Source of the DNA: Kingella sp. (in: b-proteobacteria) | GTDB taxonomy: Bacteria; Pseudomonadota; Gammaproteobacteria; Burkholderiales; Neisseriaceae | Assembly: GCF_030527935.1 (NCBI RefSeq) | Contig: NZ_JAUMZV010000001.1 | Span: forward strand, 32,054-64,053 | DNA length: 32,000 nucleotides | Direction of reading: 5' to 3' | Shown here: positions 5,765 to 29,118 of the stretch, in pieces | Layout: each line of letters opens with the position of its first letter | Numbering within the stretch: the stretch's first letter is position 1 | Position numbers and translations under genes: made by a program | Notes under the pieces: model-generated | The model's database searches: none | What the model was told of the DNA's origin: nothing | What the model saw: the letters and a program-made list of their open reading frames with translations, nothing else

Positions 5765-8089
5765 ATGCTACTCCGCCATCTCTACACACTCTTCACCCTA
5801 CTGCTCTGCCTGTTTCTCGCCTACACCGTTGCCACCCGCAACTGGCTGCAAACCGACCTGACCGCCCTGCTCCCCGCCGAGCAGCAGCCCGACGCGCTGC
5901 TGGTTGCCGCCGATAAAGCAGGCGAAGCGCAGCTCAATGAGCAGATTGTCTTGCTCGCTGGCAGCGCGAATGCGGAACACGCTTTTCAGGCTGCCGATGC
6001 GATTGCGGCGAAATGGCGCGAAAGCGGCGTGTTTGAGTCGGTGGACAGCAGCATCACGCCCGATTTGGACAGCGTGCGCGCCGATATGCAGCGTCTGGCG
6101 TTGGCAACGCTGCCGCAGGAGCAGGCGAATCTGTTGACGGACAATCCCAAGCAGTATTTCCAAGCCCGCGCCGAAGATGCGGCGAACCCGTTTGCCGCCG
6201 TCTCGCCCTTGTCGCTGGAACAGGACTGGCTGGGCTTCGGGCGGTTTGTGGCAGCAAAAGCCAATCCGCAGAGCCGTTTGCAGTGGAATATGGACAACGG
6301 CATGTTGTTCACCGAAGCGGACGGCAAAACGTGGGTGTGGCTGCGCGGCCGTCTGAAAACGGGCAATAACTTTTCGGGCAACGACCGCCTGCTGCCGCTG
6401 ATAAACAACAGCCGCGCCATCGCGCAACAGCACGGCGCGGAAACGCTTGCGGCGGGCGGTGCGCTGTTTGCCGCCGCGTCCAAATCCGCCGCCGAAGCGG
6501 AAAGCCAAACCATGAGCTTGTTCGGCACGCTGGCAACGTTCGCGCTGCTGCTGTGGGTGTTCCGCAGCCTGCGCGTGTTCTGGCTGGCGTTGCCGCTGGC
6601 GGCGGGCATGCTCACGGGGCTGGCGGCGGCGTTGGCGGTGTTCGGCGAAGTGCATATTTTGACGATTGTGATTGGCACGAGCTTGGTCGGCATGCTGGTG
6701 GATTTTCCGCTGCATTGGCTTGCGCCGTCCGTATTCGGCGCAAACAGGCTTTCAGACGACCTTTCGGCAAAATGGTCGTCTGAAAGCGCGATGAAACACG
6801 TTCTGCCCAGCTTTGCCGTGAGCCTGACGATTACCGTGTTGGGCTACGCGCTGCTGTGGCTCACGCCGCTTGCCGTGTTGCGCCAAACCGCCGTGTTCTC
6901 GGGCTTCGCGCTCTTGGGCGCGTTCGGCGCAACCGTGTTGTGGCTGCCGCCGCTGTTTCGCCGTTATCAGGCAAAAACCGTGCCGTTTACGGGTTTGACG
7001 GAAAGCCTGCTCCGCCTGCAAGGTCGTCTGAACAAGCGTCTGCACAAACGCGGCTGGCTGGTATTGGGCGGCATATTCTTGGCGGCGGGCTTGTGGCGCA
7101 GCGACTGGCGCGACGACATCCGCCAATGGGTCAATATGCCGCCCGAAATGCTGGCGCAAGTGCAGCGCATCGGCGAATTGAGCGGCACCGATTTCGGCGG
7201 CCGCTACATCGTTGCCGAAGCCGACAGCGAAGACGCGCTGCTGGCCAAAAACGCCGAACTCAACCGCGCCCTGCAACCGCTCATCGTCCAAGGCAAACTC
7301 GGCGGCACGCAGTCGCTGGACCAATTTGTGATGCCCGTATCCGAACAGGAAAAACTGCAAAACCGCCTGCGCGAACTCGCCAAGCAGCCTGAAAATTGGC
7401 AGCCGCTTGCCGACATCGGCATACCGCGCCAAACCCTGCGCCAAGCCCTGAACCAAGCCGCCGACACACCGCCACTTATGCTTTCAGGCAGCCTGAAAAC
7501 CCAGCTCGCCCAAGCATGGCAGCCGCTGTATTTGGGCGAAGTGGAACGCGGACGCTACGCCGCCGTCGTGCGCCTGAACGGCGTAAGCGACGAAGCCGCC
7601 GTCCGCGCCGCCGCGCAAAGCGTTTCGGGCACACATTGGGCAGACAAACGCGCCCATCTCAACGACCTATTCCACCACACGCGCAACCAAGCCGCATGGC
7701 TCAAACTCGCGTCCTACGCGCTGGCATGGCTGCTCTTGTGGCAGATGTTCGGCGCAAAACGCGGCAGCAAAATCCTTGCCGTGCCGCTCGCTGCCGCCGT
7801 CTGCACCGTTGCCGCGCTCGGCTGGCTGGGCATACCCGTGAGCCTGTTCGCCATGTTCGGGTTGCTGCTCGTTTCCGCCATTGGCGCGGACTACGCCGTC
7901 TATGCGCTCACCGCCAAACACCCCGCCAACGCACGGCTGGGCGGAATGCTGCTCGCTGCCGCCACGACTGCCATTTCCTTTGCCCTGCTTGCATTGAGCA
8001 GCACGCCCGCCGTCGCCGCATTCGGGCTGACGGTAACCATCGGCGTGGGGTTTAATCTCTGGCTGGCAGGGGCGTTGTTGGAGGATTGA
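5765..8089 (+). CDS. MMPL/RND-superfamily exporter of the aryl-polyene cluster (ApeM-like)
   Basis: The 774-aa product has two blocks of multiple TM helices separated by large soluble regions. The size and the neighbouring DUF3261 and KS genes match APE clusters. Confidence 0.85.
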   Translation: MLLRHLYTLFTLLLCLFLAYTVATRNWLQTDLTALLPAEQQPDALLVAADKAGEAQLNEQIVLLAGSANAEHAFQAADAIAAKWRESGVFESVDSSITPDLDSVRADMQRLALATLPQEQANLLTDNPKQYFQARAEDAANPFAAVSPLSLEQDWLGFGRFVAAKANPQSRLQWNMDNGMLFTEADGKTWVWLRGRLKTGNNFSGNDRLLPLINNSRAIAQQHGAETLAAGGALFAAASKSAAEAESQTMSLFGTLATFALLLWVFRSLRVFWLALPLAAGMLTGLAAALAVFGEVHILTIVIGTSLVGMLVDFPLHWLAPSVFGANRLSDDLSAKWSSESAMKHVLPSFAVSLTITVLGYALLWLTPLAVLRQTAVFSGFALLGAFGATVLWLPPLFRRYQAKTVPFTGLTESLLRLQGRLNKRLHKRGWLVLGGIFLAAGLWRSDWRDDIRQWVNMPPEMLAQVQRIGELSGTDFGGRYIVAEADSEDALLAKNAELNRALQPLIVQGKLGGTQSLDQFVMPVSEQEKLQNRLRELAKQPENWQPLADIGIPRQTLRQALNQAADTPPLMLSGSLKTQLAQAWQPLYLGEVERGRYAAVVRLNGVSDEAAVRAAAQSVSGTHWADKRAHLNDLFHHTRNQAAWLKLASYALAWLLLWQMFGAKRGSKILAVPLAAAVCTVAALGWLGIPVSLFAMFGLLLVSAIGADYAVYALTAKHPANARLGGMLLAAATTAISFALLALSSTPAVAAFGLTVTIGVGFNLWLAGALLED
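6748..6787. repeat. Neisseria-dialect DUS inverted pair embedded in-frame in the MMPL CDS
   Basis: GCTTTCAGACGACC (6748-6761) and GGTCGTCTGAAAGC (6774-6787) form a perfect 14-bp stem with a 12-nt loop. The segment is translated as LSDDLSAKWSSES. Confidence 0.85.
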
Positions 8090-8096
8090 TGCAAAA

Positions 8097-8151
8097 GATC
8101 GTCTGAAAGCGGTAAATGCATCTTTCAGACGGTCTTTCAGTCTGCTTTTTT
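8097..8151 (+). terminator. terminator built from a Neisseria-dialect DUS pair
   Basis: GATCGTCTGAAAG pairs with CTTTCAGACGGTC (one mismatch), followed by TTTCAGTCTGCTTTTTT. It starts 8 nt after the MMPL stop codon. Confidence 0.6.
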
Positions 8152-8260
8152 CATTGAAGTAAAGCAAATCGGGCATTATCCGTGCATCAATACCCAACCC
8201 ACTCAACAAAAAGCAGCCTGAAACCCCATTCCCCCATTTTCAGGCTGCCTTGCAAGATCC

Positions 8261-8266
8261 TATAAT
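8261..8266 (+). promoter_or_regulatory. candidate -10 box upstream of the halogenase gene
   Basis: A perfect TATAAT lies 45 nt upstream of ATG 8311, and AAAGGAG sits 7 nt before the ATG. I found no convincing -35. Confidence 0.3.
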
Positions 8267-8310
8267 TACGCCTTTATGCCAAACCATTTATCTGCGAAAG
8301 GAGTTTCATT

Positions 8311-9555
8311 ATGTCCCACCCCCAATTTGATGTTGCCGTTATCGGCGCAGGCCCGTCAGGCTCGGTGGCTTCCGCGCTGCTGCACAAGCAAGGCTTTAAA
8401 GTATGCGTGCTGGAAAAACAGCATTTTCCGCGCTTCGTCATCGGCGAGAGCTTGCTGCCGTACTGCATGGAAATGCTGGAAGAAGCGGGCTTTGCCGATG
8501 CCGTACGCGCCGAAAAAGGCTTTCAGTTTAAAAACGGCGCGGCGTTCGCATGGGGCAGCCGCCGCACCGCGTTTGATTTCACCGACAAATTCACCGCCGG
8601 GCCGGGCACGGTGTTCCAAGTGCGCCGCGAAGTGTTTGACAAAATCCTGATAGACGAAGCCGCCAAACAGGGCGTTCAAGTGCGCTTCGGGCACGGCGTA
8701 ACCGCGTTTGACAACAGCGGCGACACCGCGCGTTTGAACGTGGCAACCGACACAGGCGAACAATACGAACTCACCGCCCGCTTTGTTTTAGATGCCAGCG
8801 GCTACGGGCGCGTGCTGCCGCGCCTGCTGGACTTGGAAACCCCGTCCCACCTGCCCCCGCGCATGGCGCATTTCACCCGCATCACCGACAACATCGCCGC
8901 CGATGCGGATTTTGACCGCAACAAAATCCTGATTACCACCCACCCGCAGCACCGCGACGTGTGGTTTTGGACAATCCCATTCGGCGACAACACCTGCTCG
9001 CTCGGCGTGGTCGGCACGCCCGACAAACTCGCGGGCGAACCCGAAGCCGTGTTGAAAAAAATGGTTGCCGACTGCCCCAATCTCGTTGGATTGTTTCAAC
9101 ATTCCGAATGGGAAAACGGCTTCCCCTACCGCAGCATCCAAGGCTATTCCGCCAACGTCAAAGCCCTTTACGGCAAACATTTCGCACTCTTGGGCAACGC
9201 CGCCGAGTTTCTTGACCCCGTGTTCTCATCGGGCGTAACCATCGCGCTGCACTCCGCCAAACTCGCCGCCGACCTGCTCGCCCGACAGCTCAAAGGCGGC
9301 GCGGCAGACTGGCAGACCGAGTTCGCCGAACCGCTGATGGTGGGCGTAAACGCCTTCCGCACCTATGTGGACGGCTGGTACGACAACCGTTTCCAAAACG
9401 TGGTGTACGCCCCCAACCGCGCCCCCGAAATCAGCCGCATGATTTCCGCCATTCTCGCAGGCTATGCGTGGGATACGGAAAACCCGTTTGTCGCAAAATC
9501 GGAACAGCGGCTGAACACGCTGGCGGAGGTGGTGGGGGATTTAGCGTTTGAGTAA
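8311..9555 (+). CDS. flavin-dependent halogenase (NAD(P)/FAD-dependent oxidoreductase, tryptophan-halogenase family)
   Basis: The product has the FAD motif VIGAGPSGS. It also has the WxWxIP signature as WFWTIP (8962-8979) and the FxxPxxSxG signature as FLDPVFSSG (9208-9234). Confidence 0.8.
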   Translation: MSHPQFDVAVIGAGPSGSVASALLHKQGFKVCVLEKQHFPRFVIGESLLPYCMEMLEEAGFADAVRAEKGFQFKNGAAFAWGSRRTAFDFTDKFTAGPGTVFQVRREVFDKILIDEAAKQGVQVRFGHGVTAFDNSGDTARLNVATDTGEQYELTARFVLDASGYGRVLPRLLDLETPSHLPPRMAHFTRITDNIAADADFDRNKILITTHPQHRDVWFWTIPFGDNTCSLGVVGTPDKLAGEPEAVLKKMVADCPNLVGLFQHSEWENGFPYRSIQGYSANVKALYGKHFALLGNAAEFLDPVFSSGVTIALHSAKLAADLLARQLKGGAADWQTEFAEPLMVGVNAFRTYVDGWYDNRFQNVVYAPNRAPEISRMISAILAGYAWDTENPFVAKSEQRLNTLAEVVGDLAFE

Positions 9556-9565
9556 GCAGTAAAGA

Positions 9566-9609
9566 GTTTCAGGCTGCCTTTCATGTCATCTGAAAGGCAG
9601 CCTGAAAAC
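9566..9609. terminator. DUS inverted-pair hairpin after the halogenase gene
   Basis: GTTTCAGGCTGCCTTT pairs with AAAGGCAGCCTGAAAAC, 11 nt after the stop codon. Confidence 0.5.
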
Positions 9610-9740
9610 GCATCAGCCCAATTATTTTGCCAGCGCACGGCTTGCAAGCAAGCCGTAGGAAACGCGAAGCAACCATTTCAGGCTGCCGCCATCCATTCCC
9701 GCGTTCAGGCAGCCTGAAACCCCCAACCCAAAGGAACCCC

Positions 9741-10271
9741 ATGCGCCTTATCCCGATAACCGCAACCCTGCTCGCCCTTGCCGCCTGTACCACATTGCCA
9801 CACCCGCAAACCCTGCCCGCGCTGCCGCAGCAGGCGCAATGGTTCAAATTGGAGCAGACCGATGCCGCAGGGCAAGCCGTGCAGACCAGCCTGTTGGCGG
9901 TGGAGCAGCTTTCAGACGGCATCCGCTTTGTGCAGACCGACGCGCTCGGCGCGCCCGTGTCGCGGCAGACCGTTACCCCGCGCGGCTGGAAAAACGACGG
10001 CTTTATCATGCCCAACGCCCGCTCGCGCCACCTGTTTGCCGCGCTTTTGCCGCTGATTGCCGCCGACCGCGCCGAAACGCTGTATCCCGATGTGCAACAG
10101 ACGCAGCCTGAAACGTCGTCTGAAAGCCGCCAGACCTTCTGCCCCACAGGCAGCAGCGCACTATTCCGTTACCGCAACCGCGATTTGTGGTGCGTGGCGC
10201 ACAGCGGCAGCCGCTTTGACATCTCGTTCCCCGACCAAACCCGCTGGACAGTCCAACCCATTGAAGAATAA
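9741..10271 (+). CDS. DUF3261-type lipoprotein of APE clusters (ApeN-like)
   Basis: ATG 9741 follows AAGGA. The signal peptide carries the lipobox LLALAAC. Its size and position between the MMPL and KS genes are as in APE clusters. Confidence 0.7.
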   Translation: MRLIPITATLLALAACTTLPHPQTLPALPQQAQWFKLEQTDAAGQAVQTSLLAVEQLSDGIRFVQTDALGAPVSRQTVTPRGWKNDGFIMPNARSRHLFAALLPLIAADRAETLYPDVQQTQPETSSESRQTFCPTGSSALFRYRNRDLWCVAHSGSRFDISFPDQTRWTVQPIEE

Positions 10272-10274
10272 ACC

Positions 10275-11483
10275 ATGAGCACCCCCGTTTACCTGACCCG
10301 CCCCGCCGTAACCAGCGCACTCGGCAGCGGACTGCAAACCCATATTGATGCGCTGCTCAATCCGAGTGCCGGCAGCCCGCTGACGTTTTCCGCGCAATGG
10401 GTGCGCGGCAAAAATTATGCGTTCGGTGTAGTCAATGAACCTTTACGCGGTTTTTCAGACGACCTCCCCGCCGAACACCGCAGCCGCAACAACCAATTAC
10501 TCTGGCACGCCCTCGCGCAAATCGAGCCCGACATTCGCGCCGCCGTTGCCCGCTACGGTAGCCACCGCGTCGCCGTGGTCATCGGCACGTCCACCAGCGG
10601 CGCAGACGAAAATATCCCGCTGTTTGAACACGTCTCCCACGGCGGCGTCTGGGCGGACAAACCGTTTAACCAATTGCAGCACACCATGGGCGCGCCCGCC
10701 GAATTTGTCGCCGAAGTGTACGGCCTGCAAGGCTTGCGCTACACCGTCTCCACCGCCTGCACCTCGGGCGCGCGCGCCTTAATCAGCGCGGCGCGGCTGT
10801 TACGCGCCAACCTTGCCGATGCCGTGATTTGCGGTGGCGCAGACACCCTGTCGCCCTTAACCATCAACGGCTTCGCTTCGTTGGAAGTGTTGTCGGACGG
10901 CATCGCCAACCCCTTTTCCGCCCGCCGCAACGGCATCAACATCGGCGAAGCCGCCGCCGCATTCGTCATGACCCGCGATGCCGATTTCGGCGGCGCAATG
11001 CAGCTTCTCGGCTACGGCGCAAGCAGCGATGCCTACCATATGTCGTCCCCCCGCCCCGATGGCTTGGGCGCGGCACAAGCGTTTCAGGCTGCCTTCGACC
11101 ACGCCCGACTCAGCCCGCAAGACATCGGCTGGATAAACCTGCACGGCACCGGCACGCGCCACAACGACAGCATGGAAAGCCGCGCCGTCGCCCAAGTGTT
11201 TGGCAGCCGAACGCCCTGCACCTCCACCAAACCGAGCACAGGACACACCCTCGGCGCAGCAGGCGCACTCGAAGCCGCATTCGCATGGGGCGTGGCAAGC
11301 CGCGAAACCAACCCGCAAGGCAAGCTCCCGCCGCAGCTCTGGGACGGCACCCCCGACCCCGAACTGCCCGCCATCGCCCTGACTGATGAAAACAGCGTAT
11401 GGCAAAACGAACGGTGGATTGCGGCGAGTTCGTCGTTTGCATTCGGCGGGAGCAATGCGGTGTTGATTATCGGCGAGCCGTAA
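10275..11483 (+). CDS. beta-ketoacyl-ACP synthase (type II PKS KS, ApeO-like)
   Basis: The 402-aa product has the active-site Cys in VSTACTSGARAL and the two His in NLHGTGT and STGHTLGAAG. It ends FAFGGSNAVLII. Confidence 0.9.
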   Translation: MSTPVYLTRPAVTSALGSGLQTHIDALLNPSAGSPLTFSAQWVRGKNYAFGVVNEPLRGFSDDLPAEHRSRNNQLLWHALAQIEPDIRAAVARYGSHRVAVVIGTSTSGADENIPLFEHVSHGGVWADKPFNQLQHTMGAPAEFVAEVYGLQGLRYTVSTACTSGARALISAARLLRANLADAVICGGADTLSPLTINGFASLEVLSDGIANPFSARRNGINIGEAAAAFVMTRDADFGGAMQLLGYGASSDAYHMSSPRPDGLGAAQAFQAAFDHARLSPQDIGWINLHGTGTRHNDSMESRAVAQVFGSRTPCTSTKPSTGHTLGAAGALEAAFAWGVASRETNPQGKLPPQLWDGTPDPELPAIALTDENSVWQNERWIAASSSFAFGGSNAVLIIGEP

Positions 11484-11495
11484 ACGGCGTGAAAA

Positions 11496-11535
11496 AGGCA
11501 GCCTGAAAACGGGGGAATACGTTTTCAGGCTGCCT
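11496..11535. terminator. bidirectional DUS inverted-pair hairpin between convergent genes
   Basis: AGGCAGCCTGAAAAC and GTTTTCAGGCTGCCT form a 15-bp stem with a 10-nt loop. Confidence 0.55.
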
Positions 11536-11552
11536 GTGTTATGACTGCTTCA

Positions 11553-11795
11553 TCAAGATTGAGTACGCTCAAACCATTCCTGCTCCAACTCCCATTCCGC
11601 TAGCGCAATCAATTTATCCGTAACCCGCCTATCTAAGCCGAAATTTTCTTGAAACATCTGTTGCAGTTGCCGAGCAGCAATATCCCGCTCTTTGGCGTTT
11701 TGCAGCATCACCTTGATAAAACGAACCATTTTTTCAATCTTGTCGTCCGACACATGGTCTAAGGATTTTACTTCCCGCTTGCTACACATGGGCAT
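11553..11795 (-). CDS. hypothetical small acidic helical protein
   Basis: This 80-aa ORF lies in an AT-rich patch with AGGA upstream. It starts 18 nt after the stop of the COG4648 gene on the same strand. No family is recognisable. Confidence 0.5.
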   Translation of the reverse strand: MPMCSKREVKSLDHVSDDKIEKMVRFIKVMLQNAKERDIAARQLQQMFQENFGLDRRVTDKLIALAEWELEQEWFERTQS

Positions 11796-11813
11796 TATTC
11801 CTTTTTAATGGCT

Positions 11814-12350
11814 TCACACTTTCAACACCAGCTTGCGGTAAATCCATTCCCCCGCAAACAGCAGCCCCATCAGGATATACGACACAATACCCGTGTAAAC
11901 CGCCCACCAGTCGTAGTGTTGCCATAATGCCAACACGGCGGCGGTGATGCCGTTAAACACAAAAAAGCCGCACCAAATCTGCGTTACCCGCCGCGTGTGG
12001 CGCACGCCCTCGGGCGGCAGGTCGGGATGTTGCAGGCGGGCGAGGCGTTCAATCACGGTTTGCTTGGCAAACAGGCTGCCGCCGAACACGGCGAGCATCA
12101 GCGCGTTGACGGCAACAGGATACCAATACATCGAATCAGGCAGCCTGAAAACCAAAACGGCGGCGAAAAACGCGGCGAGCAACAGCGCAACCGCCCGCTG
12201 CCCCGCCGTTTGCGGCATGGCGGCGCGTATCAGCCACAGGACGCACATGGCGGCGGCGAGCCAGAAAAACGCGCCGTTTTCGCGCCCGTAGTACCACAAA
12301 AGCGGGTAGGCGAGACTGGCTAGGGTGAGCAGAATTTTGGCGGCGGTCAT
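11814..12350 (-). CDS. COG4648-type integral membrane protein of APE clusters (ApeG-like)
   Basis: The start was set at ATG 12350 (MTAAKILL...), because the longer ORF reads into the MITE. The 178-aa product has multiple TM helices. Confidence 0.7.
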   Translation of the reverse strand: MTAAKILLTLASLAYPLLWYYGRENGAFFWLAAAMCVLWLIRAAMPQTAGQRAVALLLAAFFAAVLVFRLPDSMYWYPVAVNALMLAVFGGSLFAKQTVIERLARLQHPDLPPEGVRHTRRVTQIWCGFFVFNGITAAVLALWQHYDWWAVYTGIVSYILMGLLFAGEWIYRKLVLKV

Positions 12351-12396
12351 GGTGGGAATGGAAATGTTTAGGCAGCCTGAAAACGAGTGAAAGTTA

Positions 12397-12556
12397 GAAC
12401 CTGTATTCACTATTTTCATAGGCAGATTTGATGACATAAAAGCGCGGATACAAGGCAAAAAGCGCAGCAAGGTTGGGCACCTTGCGCGCATTTTTAACGC
12501 GGTAGCCGCGTTTTTAGGGCATTAAAGATACCTATGAAAATCGTGAATACAGGTTC
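12397..12556 (+). mobile_element. 160-bp MITE, copy 2
   Basis: The termini are the same as in copy 1. Direct TTA flanks lie at 12394-12396 and 12557-12559. The copy sits 46 bp upstream of the ApeG-like start. Confidence 0.85.
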
Positions 12557-12588
12557 TTAAACACGTTTTCAGGCTGCCTTTGTGCCAA

Positions 12589-12936
12589 TTAGCAACGACC
12601 TGCTGCTCTCAACAAATCATTGCATTGCCCTGTTCTACGCAATGCGGCTTTGGCTGCGTTGCCCGAACACAGCGCGTCCGAAGTCGTCGCACCTATCATG
12701 GTAACGGAGTTGGTTACATAGCATTGGGTGGCGCGTCCGCCCACGGTCGCAGTAAAGTGAATGGTTATGCCTTCATTTCTACGGTTGCTGATGGTTACTT
12801 TGTCGGGGCTCGTGCCCAAAGTAAACGCAGCGCGTTCGCGTAGCTTCGCATCGGAAACGGTAGCATTATTGACCCCCGAGCAAGCGGTTAAAGTAAGCGC
12901 AGCGGCTAGGGTGATGATGGATAAACGAATATTCAT
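12589..12936 (-). CDS. small Cys-rich lipoprotein, function unknown
   Basis: The signal peptide carries the lipobox LTLTAC. The 115-aa product has four further Cys in the mature part. It is not a canonical APE gene. Confidence 0.65.
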   Translation of the reverse strand: MNIRLSIITLAAALTLTACSGVNNATVSDAKLRERAAFTLGTSPDKVTISNRRNEGITIHFTATVGGRATQCYVTNSVTMIGATTSDALCSGNAAKAALRRTGQCNDLLRAAGRC

Positions 12937-13097: not shown

Positions 13098-13379
13098 TCA
13101 GCGTTCTGTGCCGCTGTCGGCAGCCTGAACTTTCAACACTGCCTGCACCACGTCGTTCACGGTGCGCACGTTGCGGAAGTCTTCGGCGTTGAGCTTACGG
13201 CCGGTTTCGCGTTTGATGCGGTCGATCAAATCAATCGCGTCGATGCTGTCGATTTCCAAGTCTTCGTAAAGATTGGTGTCGGGCTGGATGCGCTCGGGTT
13301 CGATTTCAAACAAATGAACCAGCGTGTCGGCAAGCAGGGTGCGGATTTCGGCTTCGCTTAGGATTTTTTGTTCGCTCAT
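13098..13379 (-). CDS. acyl carrier protein (ApeF-like)
   Basis: ATG 13379 lies 5 nt after AAGGAG. The phosphopantetheine attachment site is in DLEIDSIDAIDL. Confidence 0.85.
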   Translation of the reverse strand: MSEQKILSEAEIRTLLADTLVHLFEIEPERIQPDTNLYEDLEIDSIDAIDLIDRIKRETGRKLNAEDFRNVRTVNDVVQAVLKVQAADSGTER

Positions 13380-13388
13380 CACTGCTCC

Positions 13389-18535: not shown

Positions 18536-18555
18536 TTTCGGTTTCAAGCTGCCTT

Positions 18556-20041: not shown

Positions 20042-20046
20042 TAAGT

Positions 20047-20075
20047 TTGCCTTTATTTACCGAACGCCCTACAAT
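20047..20075 (+). promoter_or_regulatory. candidate sigma70 promoter for the adenylase operon
   Basis: TTGCCT (20047-20052), a 17-nt spacer, then TACAAT (20070-20075). It begins 6 nt beyond the MITE end and lies 75 nt upstream of ATG 20150. Confidence 0.35.
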
Positions 20076-20149
20076 TTTCGCCCGCTGCCGCTTCTTGCCT
20101 ATAAAGGCAGCCTGAAATCCCTTCCCCCAATCATTCCAAGCCACTACCC

Positions 20150-22138: not shown

Positions 22139-23230
22139 ATGAACCTATCCCCCCATCTCGCCGACCGCTACACCCAAGAACACCAAACCGCCAACCAAGC
22201 GCAACGCTTGGCGCAGGAAATCGCCTTTGCGCCGATTGTGTTTCAAGTGTCGCGGCTGATGCTCAAATACGGCATTTTGGCGCAGCTTAGCCACGCGCAT
22301 CACGGCTTAACCCGCGCCCAAATCGCGCAGGCGGCAAACATCAGCGATTACGCCGCGCAAGTGCTGCTGGAAGCGTCGCTGTCTATCGGCACGGTGCTCA
22401 TGCGCGATGACCGCTTTTTTATCAGCAAAGCAGGCTGGTTTTTGCTCAACGACAAAATGGCGCGGGTGAACTTGGATTTTGTGCAAGAAATTTGCTATCA
22501 AGGTATGTTTGATTTAGATGCCACGCTGCAATCGGGCAAACCCGAAGGGCTTAAAGTGTTTGGCGATTGGGCGACCATTTACGAAGGCTTGTCATCGCTG
22601 CCGTCCGCCTCGCAGGAAAAATGGCTGGCATTTGACCACCATTATTCCGACAGCGCGTTTCAGGCTGCCTTAAACATCGTCTTCGCCCAGCCCGTGCAAC
22701 GGCTGCTAGACGTGGGCGGCAACACAGGGCGATGGGCGTTGCAATGCGTGGCGCACAACCCCGATGTGCACATCACCATTATGGATTTGCCCCAGCAGCT
22801 CGCCTTGATGCGCGAAGCCGTGCGCGGCAAAACGGGCGCAGAGCGCATTCACGCCCACCCTGCCAATCTGCTAGACGACCAAGCTCCCTTCCCCGCAGGC
22901 TTTGATGCCATTTGGATGAGCCAATTTTTAGATTGCTTTTCCAACGAGCAAGCCACCCGCATTCTGCGCCGCGCCGCCCAAGCCATGAGCGAGCACGCCA
23001 GCTTGTTTATTTTAGAACCGCTGTGGGACAGACAACGCTACGAAACCGCCGCCTATTGCCTAACGCTCACCAGCGTCTATTTCACCGCCATGGCAAACGG
23101 CAACAGCAAAATTTTCCATTCCGAAGACCTGCTGCGCTGTATAGAACAAGCAGGCTTGGCGGTTGCCGAGATTACAGACGGCATCGGCTTGGGACACAGC
23201 ATGCTGCGCTGCGTGAAAGCCAAACCATGA
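22139..23230 (+). CDS. class I SAM-dependent (O-)methyltransferase (ApeB-like)
   Basis: The 363-aa product has an N-terminal dimerisation-like domain and the SAM motif LLDVGGNTGRWA. Confidence 0.85.
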   Translation: MNLSPHLADRYTQEHQTANQAQRLAQEIAFAPIVFQVSRLMLKYGILAQLSHAHHGLTRAQIAQAANISDYAAQVLLEASLSIGTVLMRDDRFFISKAGWFLLNDKMARVNLDFVQEICYQGMFDLDATLQSGKPEGLKVFGDWATIYEGLSSLPSASQEKWLAFDHHYSDSAFQAALNIVFAQPVQRLLDVGGNTGRWALQCVAHNPDVHITIMDLPQQLALMREAVRGKTGAERIHAHPANLLDDQAPFPAGFDAIWMSQFLDCFSNEQATRILRRAAQAMSEHASLFILEPLWDRQRYETAAYCLTLTSVYFTAMANGNSKIFHSEDLLRCIEQAGLAVAEITDGIGLGHSMLRCVKAKP

Positions 23231-23946
23231 AAACACTCGCCCTCATCCCGCACTACAACCACCCCACCACAGTGGGCAGCGTAGCCCACACCCTGCGCGG
23301 CTTTGGCTTAGACGTGTTGATTGTGGACGACGGCTCGCGCCCAGACTGCCGCCCCCTGCTGCAAGGTTTGCGCGGCGATGGCATACACGTTCTCTTCCGC
23401 CCGCGCAACGGCGGCAAAGGCGCGGCGGTGAAAACAGGGCTGCAATACGCCGCCATCGGTGGCTACACCCATGTGTTGCAAGTAGATGCCGATGGGCAAC
23501 ACCATCTTGCCGACACGCCCCAATTCATCGCCGCCGCGCAAAGGCAGCCTGAAAACGTTATCTGCGGCGAACCGCAATACGGCGATGACGCGCCCAAAGC
23601 GCGGCTTTACGGACGCAAAATCACCGACTTCTGGAATATGCTGCACACCGCATCGCGCGACATCAAAGACGGCATGTGCGGCTTTCGGCTTTATCCACTC
23701 GCCCCCACCATCGCCATCGTGCGCGAAGAACCGCTGGGCGACCGCATGGATTTTGACACCGAAATCCTTGTGCGCCTGTATTGGCGCGGCATCAAGCCCG
23801 TGTGGATTCCCACCCCCGTGCGCTACGCCCAAGACGGCGTGTCGCATTTTCGCGCCCTAGCCGACAATCTGCTCATCAGCAAAATGCACGCGCGGCTATG
23901 CTGCACCATGCTGTGGCGGCGCATCACAGGCAGCCTGAAACCATGA
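23227..23946 (+). CDS. glycosyltransferase family 2 protein (ApeJ-like)
   Basis: An ATGA overlap links it to the methyltransferase stop. The product has VLIVDDGS and the DxD motif in LQVDADGQH. The C-terminal GSLKP is DUS-encoded. Confidence 0.85.
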   Translation: MKTLALIPHYNHPTTVGSVAHTLRGFGLDVLIVDDGSRPDCRPLLQGLRGDGIHVLFRPRNGGKGAAVKTGLQYAAIGGYTHVLQVDADGQHHLADTPQFIAAAQRQPENVICGEPQYGDDAPKARLYGRKITDFWNMLHTASRDIKDGMCGFRLYPLAPTIAIVREEPLGDRMDFDTEILVRLYWRGIKPVWIPTPVRYAQDGVSHFRALADNLLISKMHARLCCTMLWRRITGSLKP

Positions 23947-24935
23947 AACCGCTGCAACACAACCATTGGGCCGCCCAGCCCGAACGCGGCAACCGCCTAT
24001 TTCTCGCGCTCACCACGCTAATGGTGCGCCACCTGCCCGCATGGCTGCTCAACCCCAGCATCGCACTCATCGTGTGCTATTTCTACGCCACCGCCCCCCG
24101 CGCTCGCCGCCATATCCGCCGCTATCAAGCCCGCCTACGCGCCGCCTATCCCGCCGCAAAACTCCCCCGCATGGCCGCCTTTCGCCAATTCACCGCCTTT
24201 GGCGCAGCCATTTGCGACCGCTTTGCCGTGTGGCAGCGCAAAATCCGCTACAAAGACTTAATCATCGAAGACCCCGACAACGTGTACGCTCTCGTGCAAC
24301 AGCGCGGGCGCGGGCAAATTTTCGCCTGCTCACACATCGGCAACACCGAAGTCTGCCGCGCCTTGGTGTCGCACAACCAAGGCTTCAAACTCAACGTACT
24401 CGTGCACAGCCAACACGCCCAAGCCTTTAACGAAGCCCTGCACAAAGCAGGCGCAGCGCGGATTCAGCTTATCCAAGTAACCGATTTAGATGCCGCCCTG
24501 ATGCTGGAACTCAACCGCCGCATAGACGCAGGCGAATGGCTCGCCATCGCCGCCGACCGCGTGCCCGTGCGCGGCGAAAAAACCGTTGCCGTCCATTTCT
24601 TAGGGCACACCGCCGAGCTGCCACAAGGCGCATGGCTACTCGCCGCCCTGCTCAAAACCCAAATCAACACCCTGTTTTGCATCAAACAAAACGGACGCTA
24701 TCATTTAAAATTGCGCCGCTTCGCCGATACCGCCAGCTGGACGCGCAGCAACCGCCCCGTCCAAGTCGCCGCCACCGCGCAACAATTTGCCGACATCATG
24801 GCGCAAGAATGTGCCACCAACCCGCTGCAATGGTTTAATTTTTATGATTTTTGGGGCGATGAAGCAGGCTGCATAGCGAAGCAGAGTGGCGAAGCTAAAA
24901 CAAGGCAGCCTGAAAACGTTGCAAACCCAAAATGA
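23943..24935 (+). CDS. LpxL/HtrB-family (lauroyl-type) acyltransferase
   Basis: An ATGA overlap links it to the GT2 stop. The 330-aa product has an N-terminal TM segment and an HX4E-type motif, SHIGNTE. The last ~20 aa are repeat- and DUS-derived. Confidence 0.7.
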   Translation: MKPLQHNHWAAQPERGNRLFLALTTLMVRHLPAWLLNPSIALIVCYFYATAPRARRHIRRYQARLRAAYPAAKLPRMAAFRQFTAFGAAICDRFAVWQRKIRYKDLIIEDPDNVYALVQQRGRGQIFACSHIGNTEVCRALVSHNQGFKLNVLVHSQHAQAFNEALHKAGAARIQLIQVTDLDAALMLELNRRIDAGEWLAIAADRVPVRGEKTVAVHFLGHTAELPQGAWLLAALLKTQINTLFCIKQNGRYHLKLRRFADTASWTRSNRPVQVAATAQQFADIMAQECATNPLQWFNFYDFWGDEAGCIAKQSGEAKTRQPENVANPK

Positions 24936-25085
24936 AACAAGAAATCGCTAAATTGCCGTCATTCCCGCGCAGGCGGGAATCTTGGTTAAACTTCAACAAC
25001 AGATTGTTTTAATTAAATTTCCAAATATCAAACAAGATTCCCGCCTGCGCGGGAATGACGGCATTTCTTAATTTTCAGGCTGCCT
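24919..25085 (+). repeat. NIME-like mosaic repeat with two dRS3-type units
   Basis: ATTCCCGCGCAGGCGGGAAT (24961-24980) and ATTCCCGCCTGCGCGGGAAT (25037-25056) are in the same orientation and architecture as the 5418-5586 copy. Confidence 0.7.
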
Positions 25086-25124: not shown

Positions 25125-25562
25125 ATGAAAAAACACATCTACTGCCACCACAGCCACGAGCTAGAAATCCCCTTTTTTGACGTAGATGCCATGCACATCG
25201 TCTGGCATGGCAACTATGTCAAATACCTAGAAGTCGCCCGCTGCGCCTTTCTCGCCAGCATCGGCTACGACTACAACGAAATGGCACGCCAAGGCTACGG
25301 CTGGCCCATCGTCAAAATGGATTTCAAATACATACGCCCCGCCCAGTTCGGGCAACACATTCGCATAGACATGGACATCGTAGAAATTGAAAGCTGCCTA
25401 CGCATAGACTACACCCTGCGCGATGTCGCCACAGGCGAAAAACTCACCCGCGCCAGCACCACCCAAGCCGCCGTTGCCATCGCCACAAGCGAAATGCAAT
25501 TCCAAACCCCCGCCAGCTGGCTTGCCGCCGTGTGCCAACACCCCACGTTTCAGGCAGCCTGA
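25125..25562 (+). CDS. 4HBT/YbgC-type acyl-CoA or acyl-ACP thioesterase (ApeK-like)
   Basis: The 145-aa hotdog-fold product has FFDVDAMHIVWHGNY. Its stop codon lies inside a DUS (..TFQAA*). Confidence 0.85.
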   Translation: MKKHIYCHHSHELEIPFFDVDAMHIVWHGNYVKYLEVARCAFLASIGYDYNEMARQGYGWPIVKMDFKYIRPAQFGQHIRIDMDIVEIESCLRIDYTLRDVATGEKLTRASTTQAAVAIATSEMQFQTPASWLAAVCQHPTFQAA

Positions 25563-25735: not shown

Positions 25736-26326
25736 ATGAAAAAATACCTTCTCGCCCTAGTCATTGCCCTAACTACCCCCGTCCTATGGGCATTCTCCCT
25801 TGCCGACTTAACGCAAACCCTGCAAAAGCCCGCCAACGTGCAAGGCGCGTTTACCCAGCAGCGTTATCTCAAATCGCTTACCAAGCCCATGACCACCAGC
25901 GGCGCGTTCACCCTTGTGCCGAAAAAAGGGCTGCTCTGGCAAATGCAAAAACCATTTGACACCACCCTGCGCGTGCGCGCCGACGGCATCATGCAATGGA
26001 CAGGCAGCGCGTGGACGAACCCCAACGCCAACAAGCTCGGGCAAAATCGCCAAATCCAGCTTTTTCTGGACTTGCTCGGCGGCAACACGCAAGGGCTGGA
26101 AAAACAATTTAACCTAAGCCTAAGCGGCACCGCGCAACAATGGACGCTGCAACTCACCCCCAAAACCGCCATCACGCGCCAAATTTTCACCCGCATAGAC
26201 ATCAGCGGCGACAGTGTTGTCCGCAAAATTGAGCTGCACGAAAAACAAGGCGACCGCACCGTGATGCAATTTAGCCAAATCCAAACCAGCAAACCGCTGG
26301 GCGAATTTGCCAAAAGCGCGTTGTAA
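25736..26326 (+). CDS. LolA-like outer-membrane lipoprotein carrier protein (ApeL-like)
   Basis: The 196-aa product has a signal peptide ending VLWA-FS and LolA-family similarity (GAFTQQRYLKSLTKPMTTSGAF). Confidence 0.8.
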   Translation: MKKYLLALVIALTTPVLWAFSLADLTQTLQKPANVQGAFTQQRYLKSLTKPMTTSGAFTLVPKKGLLWQMQKPFDTTLRVRADGIMQWTGSAWTNPNANKLGQNRQIQLFLDLLGGNTQGLEKQFNLSLSGTAQQWTLQLTPKTAITRQIFTRIDISGDSVVRKIELHEKQGDRTVMQFSQIQTSKPLGEFAKSAL

Positions 26327-26332
26327 GAACCC

Positions 26333-26375
26333 AAAGGCAGCCTGAAAACCCTTTTCCCTTTTTCAGGCTGCCTTT
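26333..26375. terminator. DUS inverted-pair hairpin followed by a T-run
   Basis: AGGCAGCCTGAA (26335-26346) pairs with TTCAGGCTGCCT (26362-26373), followed by TTTAACGTTTTTTT. Confidence 0.55.
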
Positions 26376-26543
26376 TAACGTTTTTTTATTCCCAGAGCAG
26401 GCGTTTCGCCGCCTACCACGAGCAGGGGCAAGCCCCTGCACCCCGCCGCCGCATCAACTCTTGCTGCATAAACTCAACCCATAGAGTGGACAATCCATTG
26501 CCCCCCGCCCACAAAGGCAGCCTGAAAATTTTGTAAAACCTAA

Positions 26544-26611
26544 GTAGGTCAGGCATTTATGCCCGACGTTTTTATGTGTCCGTGTTTTTCGGGCATAAAT
26601 GCCCGACCTAC
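26544..26611. repeat. REP-like double hairpin
   Basis: GTAGGTCAGGCATTTATGCCCGAC ... TCGGGCATAAATGCCCGACCTAC belongs to the same family as 15829-15899. Confidence 0.6.
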
Positions 26612-26741
26612 CGATAAGCAACAGCCCGTAGGGCGGGCAATTTATTGCCCACCAAAATGTTCACAATCATGCTAAGCAAGCACTTGCCCCCCATCTCAAA
26701 GGCAGCCTGAAAACCCTTTTTCCCCTTTTCAGGCTGCCTTA

Positions 26742-26900
26742 GAACCTGTATTCACGGTTTTCATAGGCATCTTTTATGACATAAAGCGCGGATACAAGGC
26801 AAAAAGCACAGCAAGGTTGGACACCTTGCGCGCATTTTTAACGCAGTAGCCGTGTTTTTGGGGCATAAAAGATGCCTATGAAAACCGTGAATACAGGTTC
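26742..26900 (+). mobile_element. 160-bp MITE, copy 5
   Basis: Direct TTA flanks lie at 26739-26741 and 26901-26903. Both arms carry the compensatory TA-to-GG/CC change (CACGGTTTTC / GAAAACCGTG). Confidence 0.85.
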
Positions 26901-26928
26901 TTAGATTTTAAAAAACCAATACAAAAGC

Positions 26929-26934
26929 TATAAT
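26929..26934 (+). promoter_or_regulatory. candidate -10 box upstream of darA
   Basis: A perfect TATAAT lies 26 nt before ATG 26961, with an A/T-rich tract upstream. No clear -35 is present. Confidence 0.3.
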
Positions 26935-26960
26935 TGCGCGTTTTATCATTGCCTTTCGCC

Positions 26961-27875
26961 ATGACCGCCTCCAAAGTTCTCATCGTTTACTACTCCCAAA
27001 CAGGGCAGCTTGCCACGCTTGCACAGCAATTCGCCGCCCCGCTGCAACAGGCAGGCATCACGGTGGATTGCGTGCCGCTTGTGCCGCAGCAGCCCTATCC
27101 GTTTCCGTGGCGGTTCTGGCATTTTTTTGACACGTTTCCCGAATCCGCACATCTGAAACCCGCGCCCATCAATCCGCCGCAGATTCCGCACAACGATTAC
27201 GATGTGGTTGTGATTGCCTACACCGTGTGGTTTCTCGCGCCATCGCAGCCTGTTACCGCCTTTTTGCAGCGCGAAGACACGCGCCGCCTGCTCGCGGGCA
27301 AGCCCGTAGTTACGCTTATCGGCTGCCGCAATATGTGGCTGTCGGCACAGGAAAAAATGAAAACACTGCTGGCGGCGAACGGCGCGAAACTCATCGGCAA
27401 TATCGTCAAAACCGATGCCTGCGGCACGGCGGCGAGTTTCGTTACCACGCCCGCATGGCTGCTGTCGGGCGACAAACACTATTTCAAAAACCTGCCTGCT
27501 GCCGGAATTGCCGAACACGAATTGATGGACGGCGCACGTTTCGGCGCAAAATTGCGCGACGCGCTGTCGTCTGAAACGCCGCTTGATGAGACGCTGTTTC
27601 AAAATATGGGCGCGGCGCGGGTAGATGAAAAACTGATTTTCAGCGAAAAAGCCGCCAGCCGCAGTTTTTACCTGTGGGGCAGGCTACTGATGGCGGCAGG
27701 GCGCGTGTCGCCCGTGCTGCGCCGCGTGCTGCTGGCGGTTTATATCGCGTTTTTGGTTACGCTGATTCTGACCGTTATCCCCGTCAGCATTGTGCTGAAA
27801 AAACTGCTGCACCCGCTGTTGAAAAACCGCCTTGCCCAAGCCAAACGCTATTACGCCGCGCCGTCGGGCGAATAA
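26961..27875 (+). CDS. darA: dialkylresorcinol condensing enzyme DarA-like protein
   Basis: The N-terminus is flavodoxin-like (KVLIVYYSQTGQL) and the C-terminus has TM helices. It is adjacent to a DarB-type KSIII. The family assignment is from memory. Confidence 0.7.
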   Translation: MTASKVLIVYYSQTGQLATLAQQFAAPLQQAGITVDCVPLVPQQPYPFPWRFWHFFDTFPESAHLKPAPINPPQIPHNDYDVVVIAYTVWFLAPSQPVTAFLQREDTRRLLAGKPVVTLIGCRNMWLSAQEKMKTLLAANGAKLIGNIVKTDACGTAASFVTTPAWLLSGDKHYFKNLPAAGIAEHELMDGARFGAKLRDALSSETPLDETLFQNMGAARVDEKLIFSEKAASRSFYLWGRLLMAAGRVSPVLRRVLLAVYIAFLVTLILTVIPVSIVLKKLLHPLLKNRLAQAKRYYAAPSGE

Positions 27876-27975
27876 ATCCGTTTCAGGCTGCCTTAACATA
27901 CAGGCAAGCCTGAAAATAATATAACCCCTGCCGCATCATTTCAGGCAGCCTGAAAACCCTTACCCACACACCACC

Positions 27976-29118
27976 ATGTCCAACGAAGTCTATCTCACCC
28001 GCGCCGCCGCCTTTCTGCCCAACGAGCCCGTATCCAACGACCAAATGGAAGCCGTGCTCGGCATGGCGGGCGGCATTCCCTCGCGCGTGCGCCGCATGAT
28101 TTTGCGCTCCAACGGCATCACCTCGCGCCACTACGCGATAGACCCCGCCACCCGTACCGCCACCCACACCAACGCCGAACTCGCCGCCGAAGCCCTGCGC
28201 CGCCTGTTTGCCGCCGCGCCCGAAGCGTGTGATTCAGGCTGCCTTGCCTGCGCCACGTCCTACCCCGACCAAACCATGCCGGGGCACGGCGTGATGGTAC
28301 ACGGTTTGAGCGGTATGCCGCCGTGCGAAACCGTGTCGCTGGCGGGCGTGTGCGTGGCGGGCATGGCGGCAATGAAATACGCCTACCAAGCCGTGAAATC
28401 GGGCGAACACGCCGCCGCTGTTGCCACCGCTTCGGAAAACGCTTCCGCCGTGATGTGCGGCAAAAATTTCCAAAGCGAAACCGACCTGAAAAAACTGGAA
28501 CACGCCACGCCCGAAATCGGCTTTGAAAAAGACTTTTTACGCTGGATGCTCTCGGACGGCGCAGGCGCGGTGCTGCTCGCCGACCGCCCCGTTGCAGGCA
28601 GCCTGAATTTCAAAATCCATTGGATAGAAATGCTGTCCTACGCCAACGAAATGCCGCCCTGTATGTATGCAGGCGCAGAAATCCGCAACGGCGCGTTCCA
28701 CGGCTGGAAAACCGCCGATGCCGCCGAACACGCCCGCAGCAGCATGATGGCAGTGAAGCAAGACGTGAAACTGCTCAACGAACACATTATCGCCTATACC
28801 GTAGAAAAACCGCTCGCGCACATCATCGCCAAACGTCGTCTGAAAGCCGAAGATATCGACTGGTTTCTGCCGCATTACTCATCGGGCTTTTTCCGCGACA
28901 AAGTCGCCGCAGGACTCGCCAACGCAGGCTTGCCGATACCGCAGGAAAAATGGTTCACCAACCTTGCCGAAAAAGGCAACACAGGTTCGGCTTCCATTTA
29001 CATTATTCTAGAAGAGTTTATGCGCACTTTCGCGCTGCAAAACGGTCAGAAAGTATTGTGCTACATACCCGAGAGTGGGCGGTTTTCTACTTGTTTTATG
29101 CTGCTGGAAGCGGTGTAG
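27976..29118 (+). CDS. darB: beta-ketoacyl-ACP synthase III family protein, DarB-like
   Basis: The 380-aa product has the Cys in LAGVCVAGMAA, the His in FLPHYSS and the Asn in EKGNTGSAS, giving a FabH-type Cys-His-Asn triad. Confidence 0.8.
   Translation: MSNEVYLTRAAAFLPNEPVSNDQMEAVLGMAGGIPSRVRRMILRSNGITSRHYAIDPATRTATHTNAELAAEALRRLFAAAPEACDSGCLACATSYPDQTMPGHGVMVHGLSGMPPCETVSLAGVCVAGMAAMKYAYQAVKSGEHAAAVATASENASAVMCGKNFQSETDLKKLEHATPEIGFEKDFLRWMLSDGAGAVLLADRPVAGSLNFKIHWIEMLSYANEMPPCMYAGAEIRNGAFHGWKTADAAEHARSSMMAVKQDVKLLNEHIIAYTVEKPLAHIIAKRRLKAEDIDWFLPHYSSGFFRDKVAAGLANAGLPIPQEKWFTNLAEKGNTGSASIYIILEEFMRTFALQNGQKVLCYIPESGRFSTCFMLLEAV

Follow-up and report, generated by a model that had tools for sequence, protein, structure and literature searches.

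A predicted aryl polyene (APE) gene cluster of a Kingella-like member of the Neisseriaceae is physically joined to darA and darB, a gene pair for dialkylresorcinol (DAR) synthesis. The stretch analysed, hereafter the window, comprises 32,000 nucleotides of contig NZ_JAUMZV010000001.1 of Kingella sp. (GCF_030527935.1), and it probably contains most of a cluster of about 31 kb that combines an ape pathway of the Escherichia coli/Xenorhabdus type with a dar module of the Azoarcus type. The open reading frames (ORFs) of the window were listed, scanned against Pfam and NCBIfam, and compared by BLASTP with the annotated RefSeq ape locus of E. coli (apeA to apeR plus acpT). Biosynthetic genes are dense from position 5765 to the end of the window and form five transcription blocks on alternating strands. 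Seventeen of the 19 E. coli genes have homologues in the window at 25-58% identity, and a flavin-dependent halogenase and the DarA/DarB pair come in addition to this set. The junction of an E. coli-type ape cluster with darA/darB in a Kingella-like organism had been proposed in a first-pass annotation, and Pfam, NCBIfam, BLASTP, the dialect of the DNA uptake sequences and the best matches of DarA all bear it out. The accompanying statement that every APE component is encoded holds for the 17 matched genes; however, ApeA has no counterpart and the position of ApeN is occupied by a lipoprotein of unrelated sequence. The cluster had also been called complete and said to lack a dedicated DarC acyl carrier protein (ACP), and, because the edge of the window cuts the cluster, the first statement is wrong and the second probably an artefact. 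A DarG-family gene, DarH and the first 62 codons of an ABC-transporter ATPase follow darB up to the open right edge, and syntenic Kingella loci carry an ACP a few kilobases further on. The carrier for DAR synthesis, left as an open question by that annotation, is largely accounted for by this synteny.

The ape pathway of E. coli and Xenorhabdus uses a ketosynthase (KS) paired with a chain-length factor (CLF), ApeO:ApeC, together with an initiating KS, ApeR, and all three have counterparts in the window. The ApeO-like elongating KS (10275-11483, plus strand) scores 449 bits on NF006618 (cut-off 407), is 42.5% identical to ApeO and retains the catalytic set of Cys 161 (ACTSG), His 290 (HGTGT) and His 323 (GHTLGA). 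The ApeR-like KS (16690-17943, plus strand) scores 706 bits on NF006587 (cut-off 470), is 57.6% identical to ApeR and carries the corresponding residues in ACSSG 167, HGTAT 305 and GHTLGA 337. The ApeC-like protein (14407-15147, minus strand) is a CLF-like half-KS that matches PF13723 (Ketoacyl-synt_2) at 220 bits, is 32% identical to ApeC and has Leu at the position of the KS nucleophile Cys. Both ACPs are encoded on the minus strand. One is ApeF-like (13098-13382; 109 bits on NF003757; 51% to ApeF; DSID motif) and the other ApeE-like (13389-13655; 74 bits on NF006617, cut-off 70; 52.5% to ApeE; GLDSVD motif), and each carries the phosphopantetheine serine of a DSxD motif. A FabG-type ketoreductase (KR) resembling ApeQ (15962-16690, plus strand; adh_short 175 bits; 57% to ApeQ) has the YxxxK motif as YSASK. 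The two KSs with Cys-His-His triads, the Cys-less CLF-like protein, the two ACPs and the KR of the first-pass annotation are thus all present with their motifs.

As in other clusters of the ape type, the KR is accompanied by two hotdog dehydratases. The ApeP-like one is a separate protein (15257-15742, plus strand; PF22817 53 bits; 30% to ApeP). The ApeI-like one is present as a domain but, contrary to what had been assumed, has no gene of its own; it forms the C-terminal part of an ApeH-like adenylating enzyme, a predicted acyl-ACP synthetase (20150-21802, plus strand; 33% to ApeH and 29% to ApeI). Pfam places the AMP-binding domain at residues 26-281 and the ApeI-like domain at residues 460-532, and the same fusion is found in K. 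potus and in a contig labelled Haemophilus. This enzyme, which scores 86 bits on a 4-coumarate ligase model with a cut-off of 335, would make up with the two ACPs the dedicated synthetase and carriers of an ape-type pathway. A phosphopantetheinyl transferase (PPTase) of the Sfp/AcpT type (18556-19131, minus strand) matches Pfam ACPS at 39 bits and E. coli AcpT at 35% identity, and acpT also flanks the E. coli ape cluster. A longer start giving a PPTase of 212 residues was rejected, the extension lying outside the alignment of orthologues. Models for tyrosine ammonia-lyase (TAL), chorismate lyase (UbiC) and XanB2-type chorismatase match none of the scanned window ORFs, in agreement with what the first-pass annotation had reported for TAL and chorismate lyase; the gene that supplies the starter may be elsewhere in the genome.

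The product of 26961-27875 (plus strand), flavodoxin-like in its N-terminal part and with a hydrophobic stretch at the C-terminal end, is by sequence comparison DarA, the dialkylresorcinol aromatase or 'condensing enzyme'. The assignment rests on named relatives and synteny because no DarA-specific model matched in NCBIfam or Pfam, where weak flavodoxin matches of 20-23 bits were the only ones. Relatives of DarA in NCBI and UniRef number in the thousands, and the named ones at 57-84% identity are dialkylresorcinol condensing enzymes; as expected of a putative aromatase of the dar pathway, the gene adjoins darB. The best matches (91%) come from a metagenome-assembled genome (MAG) of Kingella oralis and an uncultured Kingella, which are 89-91% identical to the window in nucleotide sequence over the shared part, followed by K. 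potus at 84%. More distant homologues are those of N. sicca, N. oralis, N. subflava, N. flavescens, N. perflava and N. dentiae (73-75%), of Pasteurellaceae (57-60%) and of Caulobacter, Pseudomonas, Azonexus and Dechloromonas (41-52%). DarB (27976-29118, plus strand) scores 562 bits on NF005293 (cut-off 450), the model of the StlD/DarB-family KSs that form the cyclohexanedione/resorcinol ring. It aligns end to end with the crystallised StlD of Photorhabdus (PDB 5gk0) at 419 bits and with the best FabH at 52 bits, which excludes an ordinary FabH. The Cys-His-Asn triad of the family is present as C126, H300 and N335, each conserved in at least 97% of 78 sequences. On the narrower 'resorcinol_DarB' exception model DarB scores 451, under the cut-off of 550. 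It had been set beforehand that DarA and DarB turning out to be a plain flavodoxin and a FabH would speak against the proposed junction, and neither did so.

Several features of the region 5' of darA vary among Kingella loci. The gap between lolA and darA (26326-26960) contains pairs of uptake sequences, small hairpins and a copy of an element resembling a miniature inverted-repeat transposable element (MITE), at the edge of which a promoter-like sequence (TTTAAA-16-TATAAT, 26907-26934) lies just 5' of darA. K. potus (9170-9913 of its locus) and two K. oralis-like MAGs have a UbiE-type methyltransferase gene between lolA and darA, which is absent from the window and from two other Kingella MAGs. 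The methylation state of the product could differ in the absence of this gene.

Downstream of darB, the order of the Azoarcus-type module, in which DarG and DarH directly follow DarB and precede an ABC transporter, is reproduced with one gene inserted. The DarG-family protein (30073-30465, plus strand; 130 residues), called darD in the Azoarcus paper, scores 171 bits on NF053536 (cut-off 70). DarH (30759-31757, plus strand; 332 residues), called darE there, is a BtrH-related acyltransferase that scores 495 bits on the equivalog model NF053550 (cut-off 300) and contains the Pfam domains BtrH_N (161 bits) and DUF4872 (178 bits). A longer ORF of 471 residues (30342-31757) was rejected as the DarH gene, because the alignments with K. 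potus and with the NCBIfam model both begin at 30759. The 5' end of the ABC ATPase gene (31815-32000, plus strand; darF in Azoarcus) is cut at the window edge after 62 codons, which match residues 1-62 of the ABC ATPase that follows DarH in K. potus at 84% identity (E 4e-29). The locus of K. potus, which is syntenic with 16.7-32 kb of the window, and two Kingella MAGs continue with the ABC ATPase, an ABC permease, an ACP, a Cys-His-His KS and a protein of 239 residues. The ACP of K. potus has 96 residues and a DSLD motif (PP-binding 21.9 bits), and those of the Kingella MAGs are 90-92% identical to it. The 239-residue protein (p239) aligns with ApeC-type CLFs in a five-sequence MAFFT alignment, which weakly suggests that the dar module has its own KS/CLF pair (17835-19576 of the K. 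potus locus; darK is hypothetical in Azoarcus).

The inserted gene encodes a DUF3800 protein (29284-30060, plus strand; Pfam DUF3800 65 bits) and probably lies outside the pathway. It sits exactly between darB and darG (29111-30060), has a GC content of about 47% against about 58-60% around it, and was found only here and in K. potus, with 94% amino-acid identity where neighbouring genes have about 85%; it is missing at this junction in four other Kingella loci. A PADLOC search with this gene and three unassigned ORFs returned only a weak PDC-M04A match (E 2e-4).

DarH may provide the link between the two halves of the cluster. Enzymes of the BtrH/CtaG/CcbD kind move carrier-protein-bound acyl groups onto acceptors, and the known members form amide bonds with amine acceptors. 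An AlphaFold (AF2) model of DarH with a pLDDT of 83 was matched by Foldseek over its full length to CtaG, CcbD (including a complex with a peptidyl carrier protein (PCP) domain) and AziU3 with a probability of 1.0 and TM scores of 0.6-0.69. Sequence identity to structures of this type is 10-16%, and a sequence search of the PDB with DarH gave no match whereas the fold search did. C12 (in HCESG), H125 and D141 are each retained by at least 97% of 57 sequences that span 44-95% identity, and in the model Cys12 begins a helix formed by residues 12-23. Variant PDB entries of CtaG are named C11A, H128A and D144N, a spacing nearly identical to that in DarH. DarH would therefore resemble the BtrH/CtaG/CcbD transacylases in its domains, its modelled full-length papain-like fold and its arrangement of an N-terminal Cys with His and Asp. 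This makes DarH a candidate carrier-protein-dependent transacylase of the Cys-His-Asp type and a candidate for the enzyme joining polyene and resorcinol; that it moves an ACP-bound polyene onto a resorcinol hydroxyl is reasonable but unproven. With a phenol as acceptor, its chemistry would differ from that of the other members, whose acceptors are amines. NCBI curated models exist for DarG, DarH and FlxJ, and our literature search found no paper characterising DarH or the esterification step of flexirubin synthesis.

The dar genes form a conserved module that, in Kingella, Neisseria and Haemophilus, directly adjoins the ape genes or is nested among them. Among related genomic loci with enough flanking sequence, DarA is followed by DarB in 77 of 77, by DarG in 73 of 73 and by DarH in 55 of 64. 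The dar and ape genes are contiguous in Kingella and in a Haemophilus-labelled contig. In the window, dar comes after lolA and closes the cluster; in Neisseria sp. GT4A_CT1 it is placed between lolA and the exporter gene (TE-LolA-[DarA...DarK]-MMPL), that is, between genes adjacent to each other in E. coli. Homologues of DarH are also numerous on contigs that bear the labels Haemophilus, Aggregatibacter, Actinobacillus, Mannheimia, Rodentibacter and Cardiobacteriaceae. The dar modules of Rhodocyclales mostly lie apart from ape-specific genes within 10 kb, and few or none of these genes occur within that distance in Azonexus, Dechloromonas and Caulobacter.

Past darB, the gene order is that of Azoarcus BH72, where the dar locus consists of darA, darB, darD (hypothetical), darE (BtrH-like), darF (ABC ATPase), two inserted genes, darI (permease), darC (ACP), darJ (KS) and darK (PMC3949708). 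Comparison of the window and its relatives with this published gene list shows the same dar order in the Kingella loci, and the analogy to arcuflavin is stronger than the first-pass annotation had claimed. The Azoarcus DarAB proteins made a resorcinol in E. coli, free DAR was undetectable in Azoarcus extracts, and the fragmentation of the pigment in mass spectrometry indicates a polyene-DAR ester (PMC3949708). Azoarcus also has a methyltransferase, a halogenase, LolA, a glycosyltransferase, acyltransferases and an exporter (PMC3949708). The two systems differ in that the polyene genes of Azoarcus occupy two unlinked loci and the dar genes form a third set, whereas all are contiguous in the window. 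Furthermore, Azoarcus has a xanthomonadin-like set with a XanB2-type chorismatase in the cluster; the window, in which no such chorismatase was found among the scanned ORFs, follows the ape organisation of E. coli. DarA of the window is only 41-44% identical to its homologues in Rhodocyclales.

The remaining genes would serve tailoring, lipid attachment and export. A methyltransferase dependent on S-adenosylmethionine (22139-23230, plus strand) belongs to the ApeB/FlxJ family (602 bits on NF053543, cut-off 560; 47% to ApeB). The flavin-dependent halogenase (8311-9555, plus strand; Trp_halogenase 77 bits, FAD_binding_3 80 bits) has the motifs GAGPSG (GxGxxG), WFWTIP (WxWxIP) and FLDPVFSSG (FxxPxxSxG) and the Lys of KNGAAF. 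The PlsC-type, ApeD-like acyltransferase (13652-14425, minus strand; Pfam Acyltransferase 61 bits; 36% to ApeD) has its HxxxxD motif as HPSLLD. ApeJ is represented by two proteins on the plus strand, a GT2 glycosyltransferase (23227-23946; Glycos_transf_2 56 bits; 47% to ApeJ residues 10-235) equivalent to its N-terminal half and an LpxL-type acyltransferase (23943-24935; Lip_A_acyltrans 42 bits; 34% to ApeJ residues 248-549) equivalent to its C-terminal half. An ApeK-like 4HBT thioesterase (25125-25562, plus strand; 4HBT_2 45 bits; 45% to ApeK) follows. Family and BLASTP matches confirm the earlier assignments of all these enzymes and of the PPTase.

The proposed export set was recovered in part. 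The LolA-like periplasmic carrier (25736-26326, plus strand; LolA_3 50 bits; 29% to ApeL), the exporter of the RND/MMPL type (5765-8089, plus strand; 25% to ApeM over residues 143-761, about 600 residues, E 2e-37; 15.5 bits on Pfam MMPL, under its cut-off) and the COG4648-type membrane protein (11814-12350, minus strand; 49% to E. coli ApeG, E 9e-42) stand, and every member of the ApeD, J, K, L, M, N and G set except ApeN has a homologue. An ApeG-like ORF of 225 residues starting at 12491 was rejected, its extension running into a MITE-like copy. The lipoprotein at the ApeN position (9741-10271, plus strand; lipobox LAAC), labelled DUF3261 by the first-pass annotation, matches no DUF3261 model in Pfam even at E<=1 and has no BLASTP similarity to E. 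coli ApeN. Its AF2 model, built from 27 sequences (pLDDT 85), is matched by Foldseek to LolA/LolB proteins (E 4e-5 to 1e-3, TM about 0.4-0.47). The predicted LolA/LolB-like fold fits the description of ApeN as "LolB-like" (PMC8253772), and the protein is, as modelled, an analogue of ApeN in position and fold only. Its family is confined to Neisseriaceae, the best named relative being that of N. bacilliformis (88%). Together with the uptake-sequence dialect, the best matches indicate an organism resembling Kingella and N. bacilliformis, with no match at the species level.

The N. bacilliformis locus (1-11893) shows how these genes can be rearranged. A halogenase homologue adjoins the exporter gene there, and this pair is split from the lipoprotein-KS pair by inserted genes for an efflux system (OEP, MFS and a membrane-fusion protein) and a LysR/Rce1-like gene. 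Genes of DUF883 and of a holin-like Pfam family lie nearby and also occur in the left flank of the window (417-779 and 1435-1875). Several ORFs within the cluster are neither ape nor dar genes, namely 11553-11795, 12589-12936, 19252-19788 and the DUF3800 insertion. Of these, 19252-19788 (minus strand) encodes a conserved lipoprotein of 178 residues whose membership in the pathway is uncertain; it matches no Pfam or NCBIfam family, and K. potus and two Kingella MAGs have it at the corresponding position with 75-84% identity. A second lipoprotein gene without family assignment lies at 12589-12936 (minus strand).

We infer the steps of the following pathway throughout from characterised homologues. 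The ApeH-like domain would activate a hydroxybenzoate starter, made elsewhere in the genome, by adenylation and transfer it to an ACP, and the ApeR-like and ApeO/ApeC-like KSs, the ApeQ-like reductase and the ApeP- and ApeI-like dehydratases would extend it to a conjugated polyene on the ACP. The ApeB/FlxJ-type methyltransferase, and possibly the halogenase, would modify the ring. DarB would join two fatty-acid-derived thioesters to a cyclohexanedione; the source of these substrates would be the ACP DarC with the synthase pair DarJ/DarK, which relatives place just outside the window, and DarA would aromatise the cyclohexanedione to a 2,5-dialkylresorcinol. Esterification of the polyene acyl group to a resorcinol hydroxyl, for which DarH is the most plausible catalyst, would give a pigment of the flexirubin/arcuflavin kind. 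Delivery of the pigment, or of a parallel APE-lipid, to the outer membrane would fall to the GT2 enzyme, both acyltransferases (PlsC- and LpxL-type), the thioesterase, the proteins resembling LolA and LolB, the RND exporter and the ABC transporter. By analogy with these systems, a membrane-bound, yellow polyene-dialkylresorcinol ester like flexirubin or arcuflavin is the best reading of the cluster, held with moderate confidence and unproven. It is possible, and we put it forward tentatively, that human-associated Neisseriaceae and Pasteurellaceae make a flexirubin-like and perhaps halogenated ester whose bond is formed by DarH from an ACP to a phenolic hydroxyl.

A number of points weigh against the ester. 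The ester link is proposed by analogy, DarH could act inside resorcinol assembly instead, and a ligase-like protein, FlxW, was proposed in 2014 for the joining step of flexirubin synthesis (PMC3992019). The dar genes past the window edge are placed from relatives, and no starter-supplying enzyme (TAL, UbiC or XanB2) was found in the window. The pigment of Azoarcus is non-halogenated although a halogenase gene is present there (PMC3949708), so that halogenation cannot be assumed for the Kingella product. In addition, nine Neisseria loci (N. flavescens, N. subflava, N. perflava and two others) carry DarA, DarB and DarG only and lack DarH, an ABC transporter, ACP/KS genes and ape genes within 10 kb. 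Decay or independent action of the module is therefore possible, and these loci may be remnants or minimal modules for free resorcinols. Finally, a complete lipid-attachment set like that of E. coli is kept, so an APE-lipid without resorcinol is equally encodable.

In the main alternative, which is less likely than the ester, the modules are adjacent yet chemically independent, the ape genes giving an outer-membrane APE lipid like that of E. coli and Xenorhabdus and the dar genes free dialkylresorcinols that leave through the ABC transporter and act as signals, antioxidants or antimicrobials. The ApeD-, ApeJ-, ApeK-, ApeL- and ApeM-like set for lipid attachment and export is all present, and in E. 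coli the same set yields APE lipids without resorcinol (PMC8253772; bioRxiv 10.1101/2020.12.19.423268). The dar module also has its own ABC transporter, ACP and KS, a promoter-like site lies just 5' of darA, and the modules of Azonexus, Dechloromonas and Caulobacter have few or no ape-specific neighbours. However, the resorcinol is esterified to the polyene in both of the dar-plus-polyene systems that have been chemically examined, flexirubin and arcuflavin, and dar is inserted between ape export genes in Neisseria. Because the flexirubin and Azoarcus clusters also keep glycosyltransferase, acyltransferase, LolA and exporter genes, the lipid-attachment genes of the window are no argument against an ester.

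The cluster might instead be silent or decaying, so that normal conditions would yield no pigment. Repeats of the MITE-like and dRS3-like kinds and uptake sequences at very high density occur throughout the span, the DUF3800 gene interrupts the darB-darG junction, the UbiE-type methyltransferase of K. potus and the K. oralis MAGs is missing, and some Neisseria keep only the DarA-DarB-DarG remnant. However, the pathway ORFs are all full length when compared with K. potus, and the catalytic motifs are intact in both KSs, both ACPs, the KR, the PlsC-type enzyme, DarB and the halogenase. Pathway orthologues are 75-96% identical in amino-acid sequence across Kingella species, the repeats lie between genes and not inside them, and oral metatranscriptomes show that the related Neisseria family is transcribed in vivo. 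Because of the intact ORFs, the conservation in Kingella and this transcription, a silent cluster is unlikely.

Comparison with known systems places the cluster among several relatives. Gene roles in the ape pathway have been described for E. coli and Xenorhabdus (PMC8253772; bioRxiv 10.1101/2020.12.19.423268). The clusters of E. coli CFT073 and Xenorhabdus doucetiae are like the window in ApeB, C, D, E, F, G, H, I, J, K, L, M, O, P, Q, R and AcpT, with blocks of gene order in common, and the E. coli cluster likewise has no starter-supply gene (PMC8253772). In contrast to E. coli, the window has ApeH and ApeI fused, ApeJ split into GT2 and LpxL-type proteins, no ApeA homologue, an unrelated lipoprotein in place of ApeN, an extra halogenase and the whole dar module, and its genes lie on both strands in several operons whereas those of E. 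coli have a single orientation. The flexirubin clusters of the Bacteroidetes Chitinophaga pinensis and Flavobacterium johnsoniae likewise combine an APE pathway with darA/darB, and the FlxJ-family methyltransferase of the window is above the cut-off of its model. BtrH-domain and ABC genes adjoin darAB also in the gene list of a Chryseobacterium resorcinol/polyene cluster. The window differs from the Bacteroidetes in that no TAL or 4-coumarate ligase was found for the starter route, and two flexirubin models stay under their cut-offs (flexirubin_DarG 119 against 170, LolA2_flexi 65 against 125).

APE clusters are among the commonest biosynthetic gene clusters of bacteria, and the present one is of a type already known and not a new kind of system. 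Surveys of oral biosynthetic clusters describe a Neisseria/H. parainfluenzae family of aryl-polyene/resorcinol clusters that is expressed in oral metatranscriptomes and associated with health; its hybrid clusters match the present one in kind and in bacterial families, and are catalogued at the antiSMASH level with no gene-by-gene analysis or product. N. leonii has been reported to have resorcinol and arylpolyene clusters, and one survey states that oral aryl polyenes are still uncharacterised. The novelty suggested for this bacterial family thus holds for the product, since our literature search, in agreement with the first-pass annotation, found no characterised product from Neisseriaceae, but not for the cluster type; no paper combining aryl polyene, dialkylresorcinol and Neisseria was found either. 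The window is a clean and intact example of the oral aryl-polyene/resorcinol cluster in a Kingella-like organism. Together with its relatives, it marks out the resorcinol part, about nine genes set within a polyene cluster, as a conserved module that includes a concrete candidate, a carrier-protein-dependent transacylase, for joining polyene and resorcinol. What makes it useful is a pathway proposal that can be tested in naturally competent bacteria. If DarH forms the ester, the joining enzyme of flexirubin-type pigments, for which we found none characterised, would be identified, and the health-associated oral family would obtain its first structure in naturally transformable, genetically testable bacteria.

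Repeats and uptake sequences are conspicuous throughout the window. The uptake 12-mer AGGCAGCCTGAA (AG-kingDUS), which we take to be the dialect of the Kingella denitrificans type, has 71 copies over the 32 kb, a density of about 2.2 per kb, against 0-8 copies for other dialects. Copies often lie inside coding sequence, where they read FQAA, GSLK, RQPE or FRLP, and inverted pairs resembling terminators are found 3' of genes, for example at 17929/17950, 26335/26362 and 26700/26728. The MITE-like element of about 170 nucleotides has five copies (3583-3755, 12391-12563, 18124-18296, 19876-20048 and 26735-26907) that are 72-95% identical and have terminal inverted repeats of about 56 nucleotides (AGAACCTGTATTCAC...). 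All five lie between genes, at the borders of operons within the cluster or next to it, and two of them create spurious N-terminal ORF extensions (11814-12491 and 19878-20144). An Rfam scan of the whole window gave no family at the gathering score, the MITE-like element included. A second element of about 155 nucleotides, presumably dRS3-like, has two copies (5430-5586 and 24929-25084) with hairpins ATTCCCGCG...GGCGGGAAT, the second half being 96% identical; one copy lies just 5' of the exporter gene and the other just 5' of the thioesterase gene.

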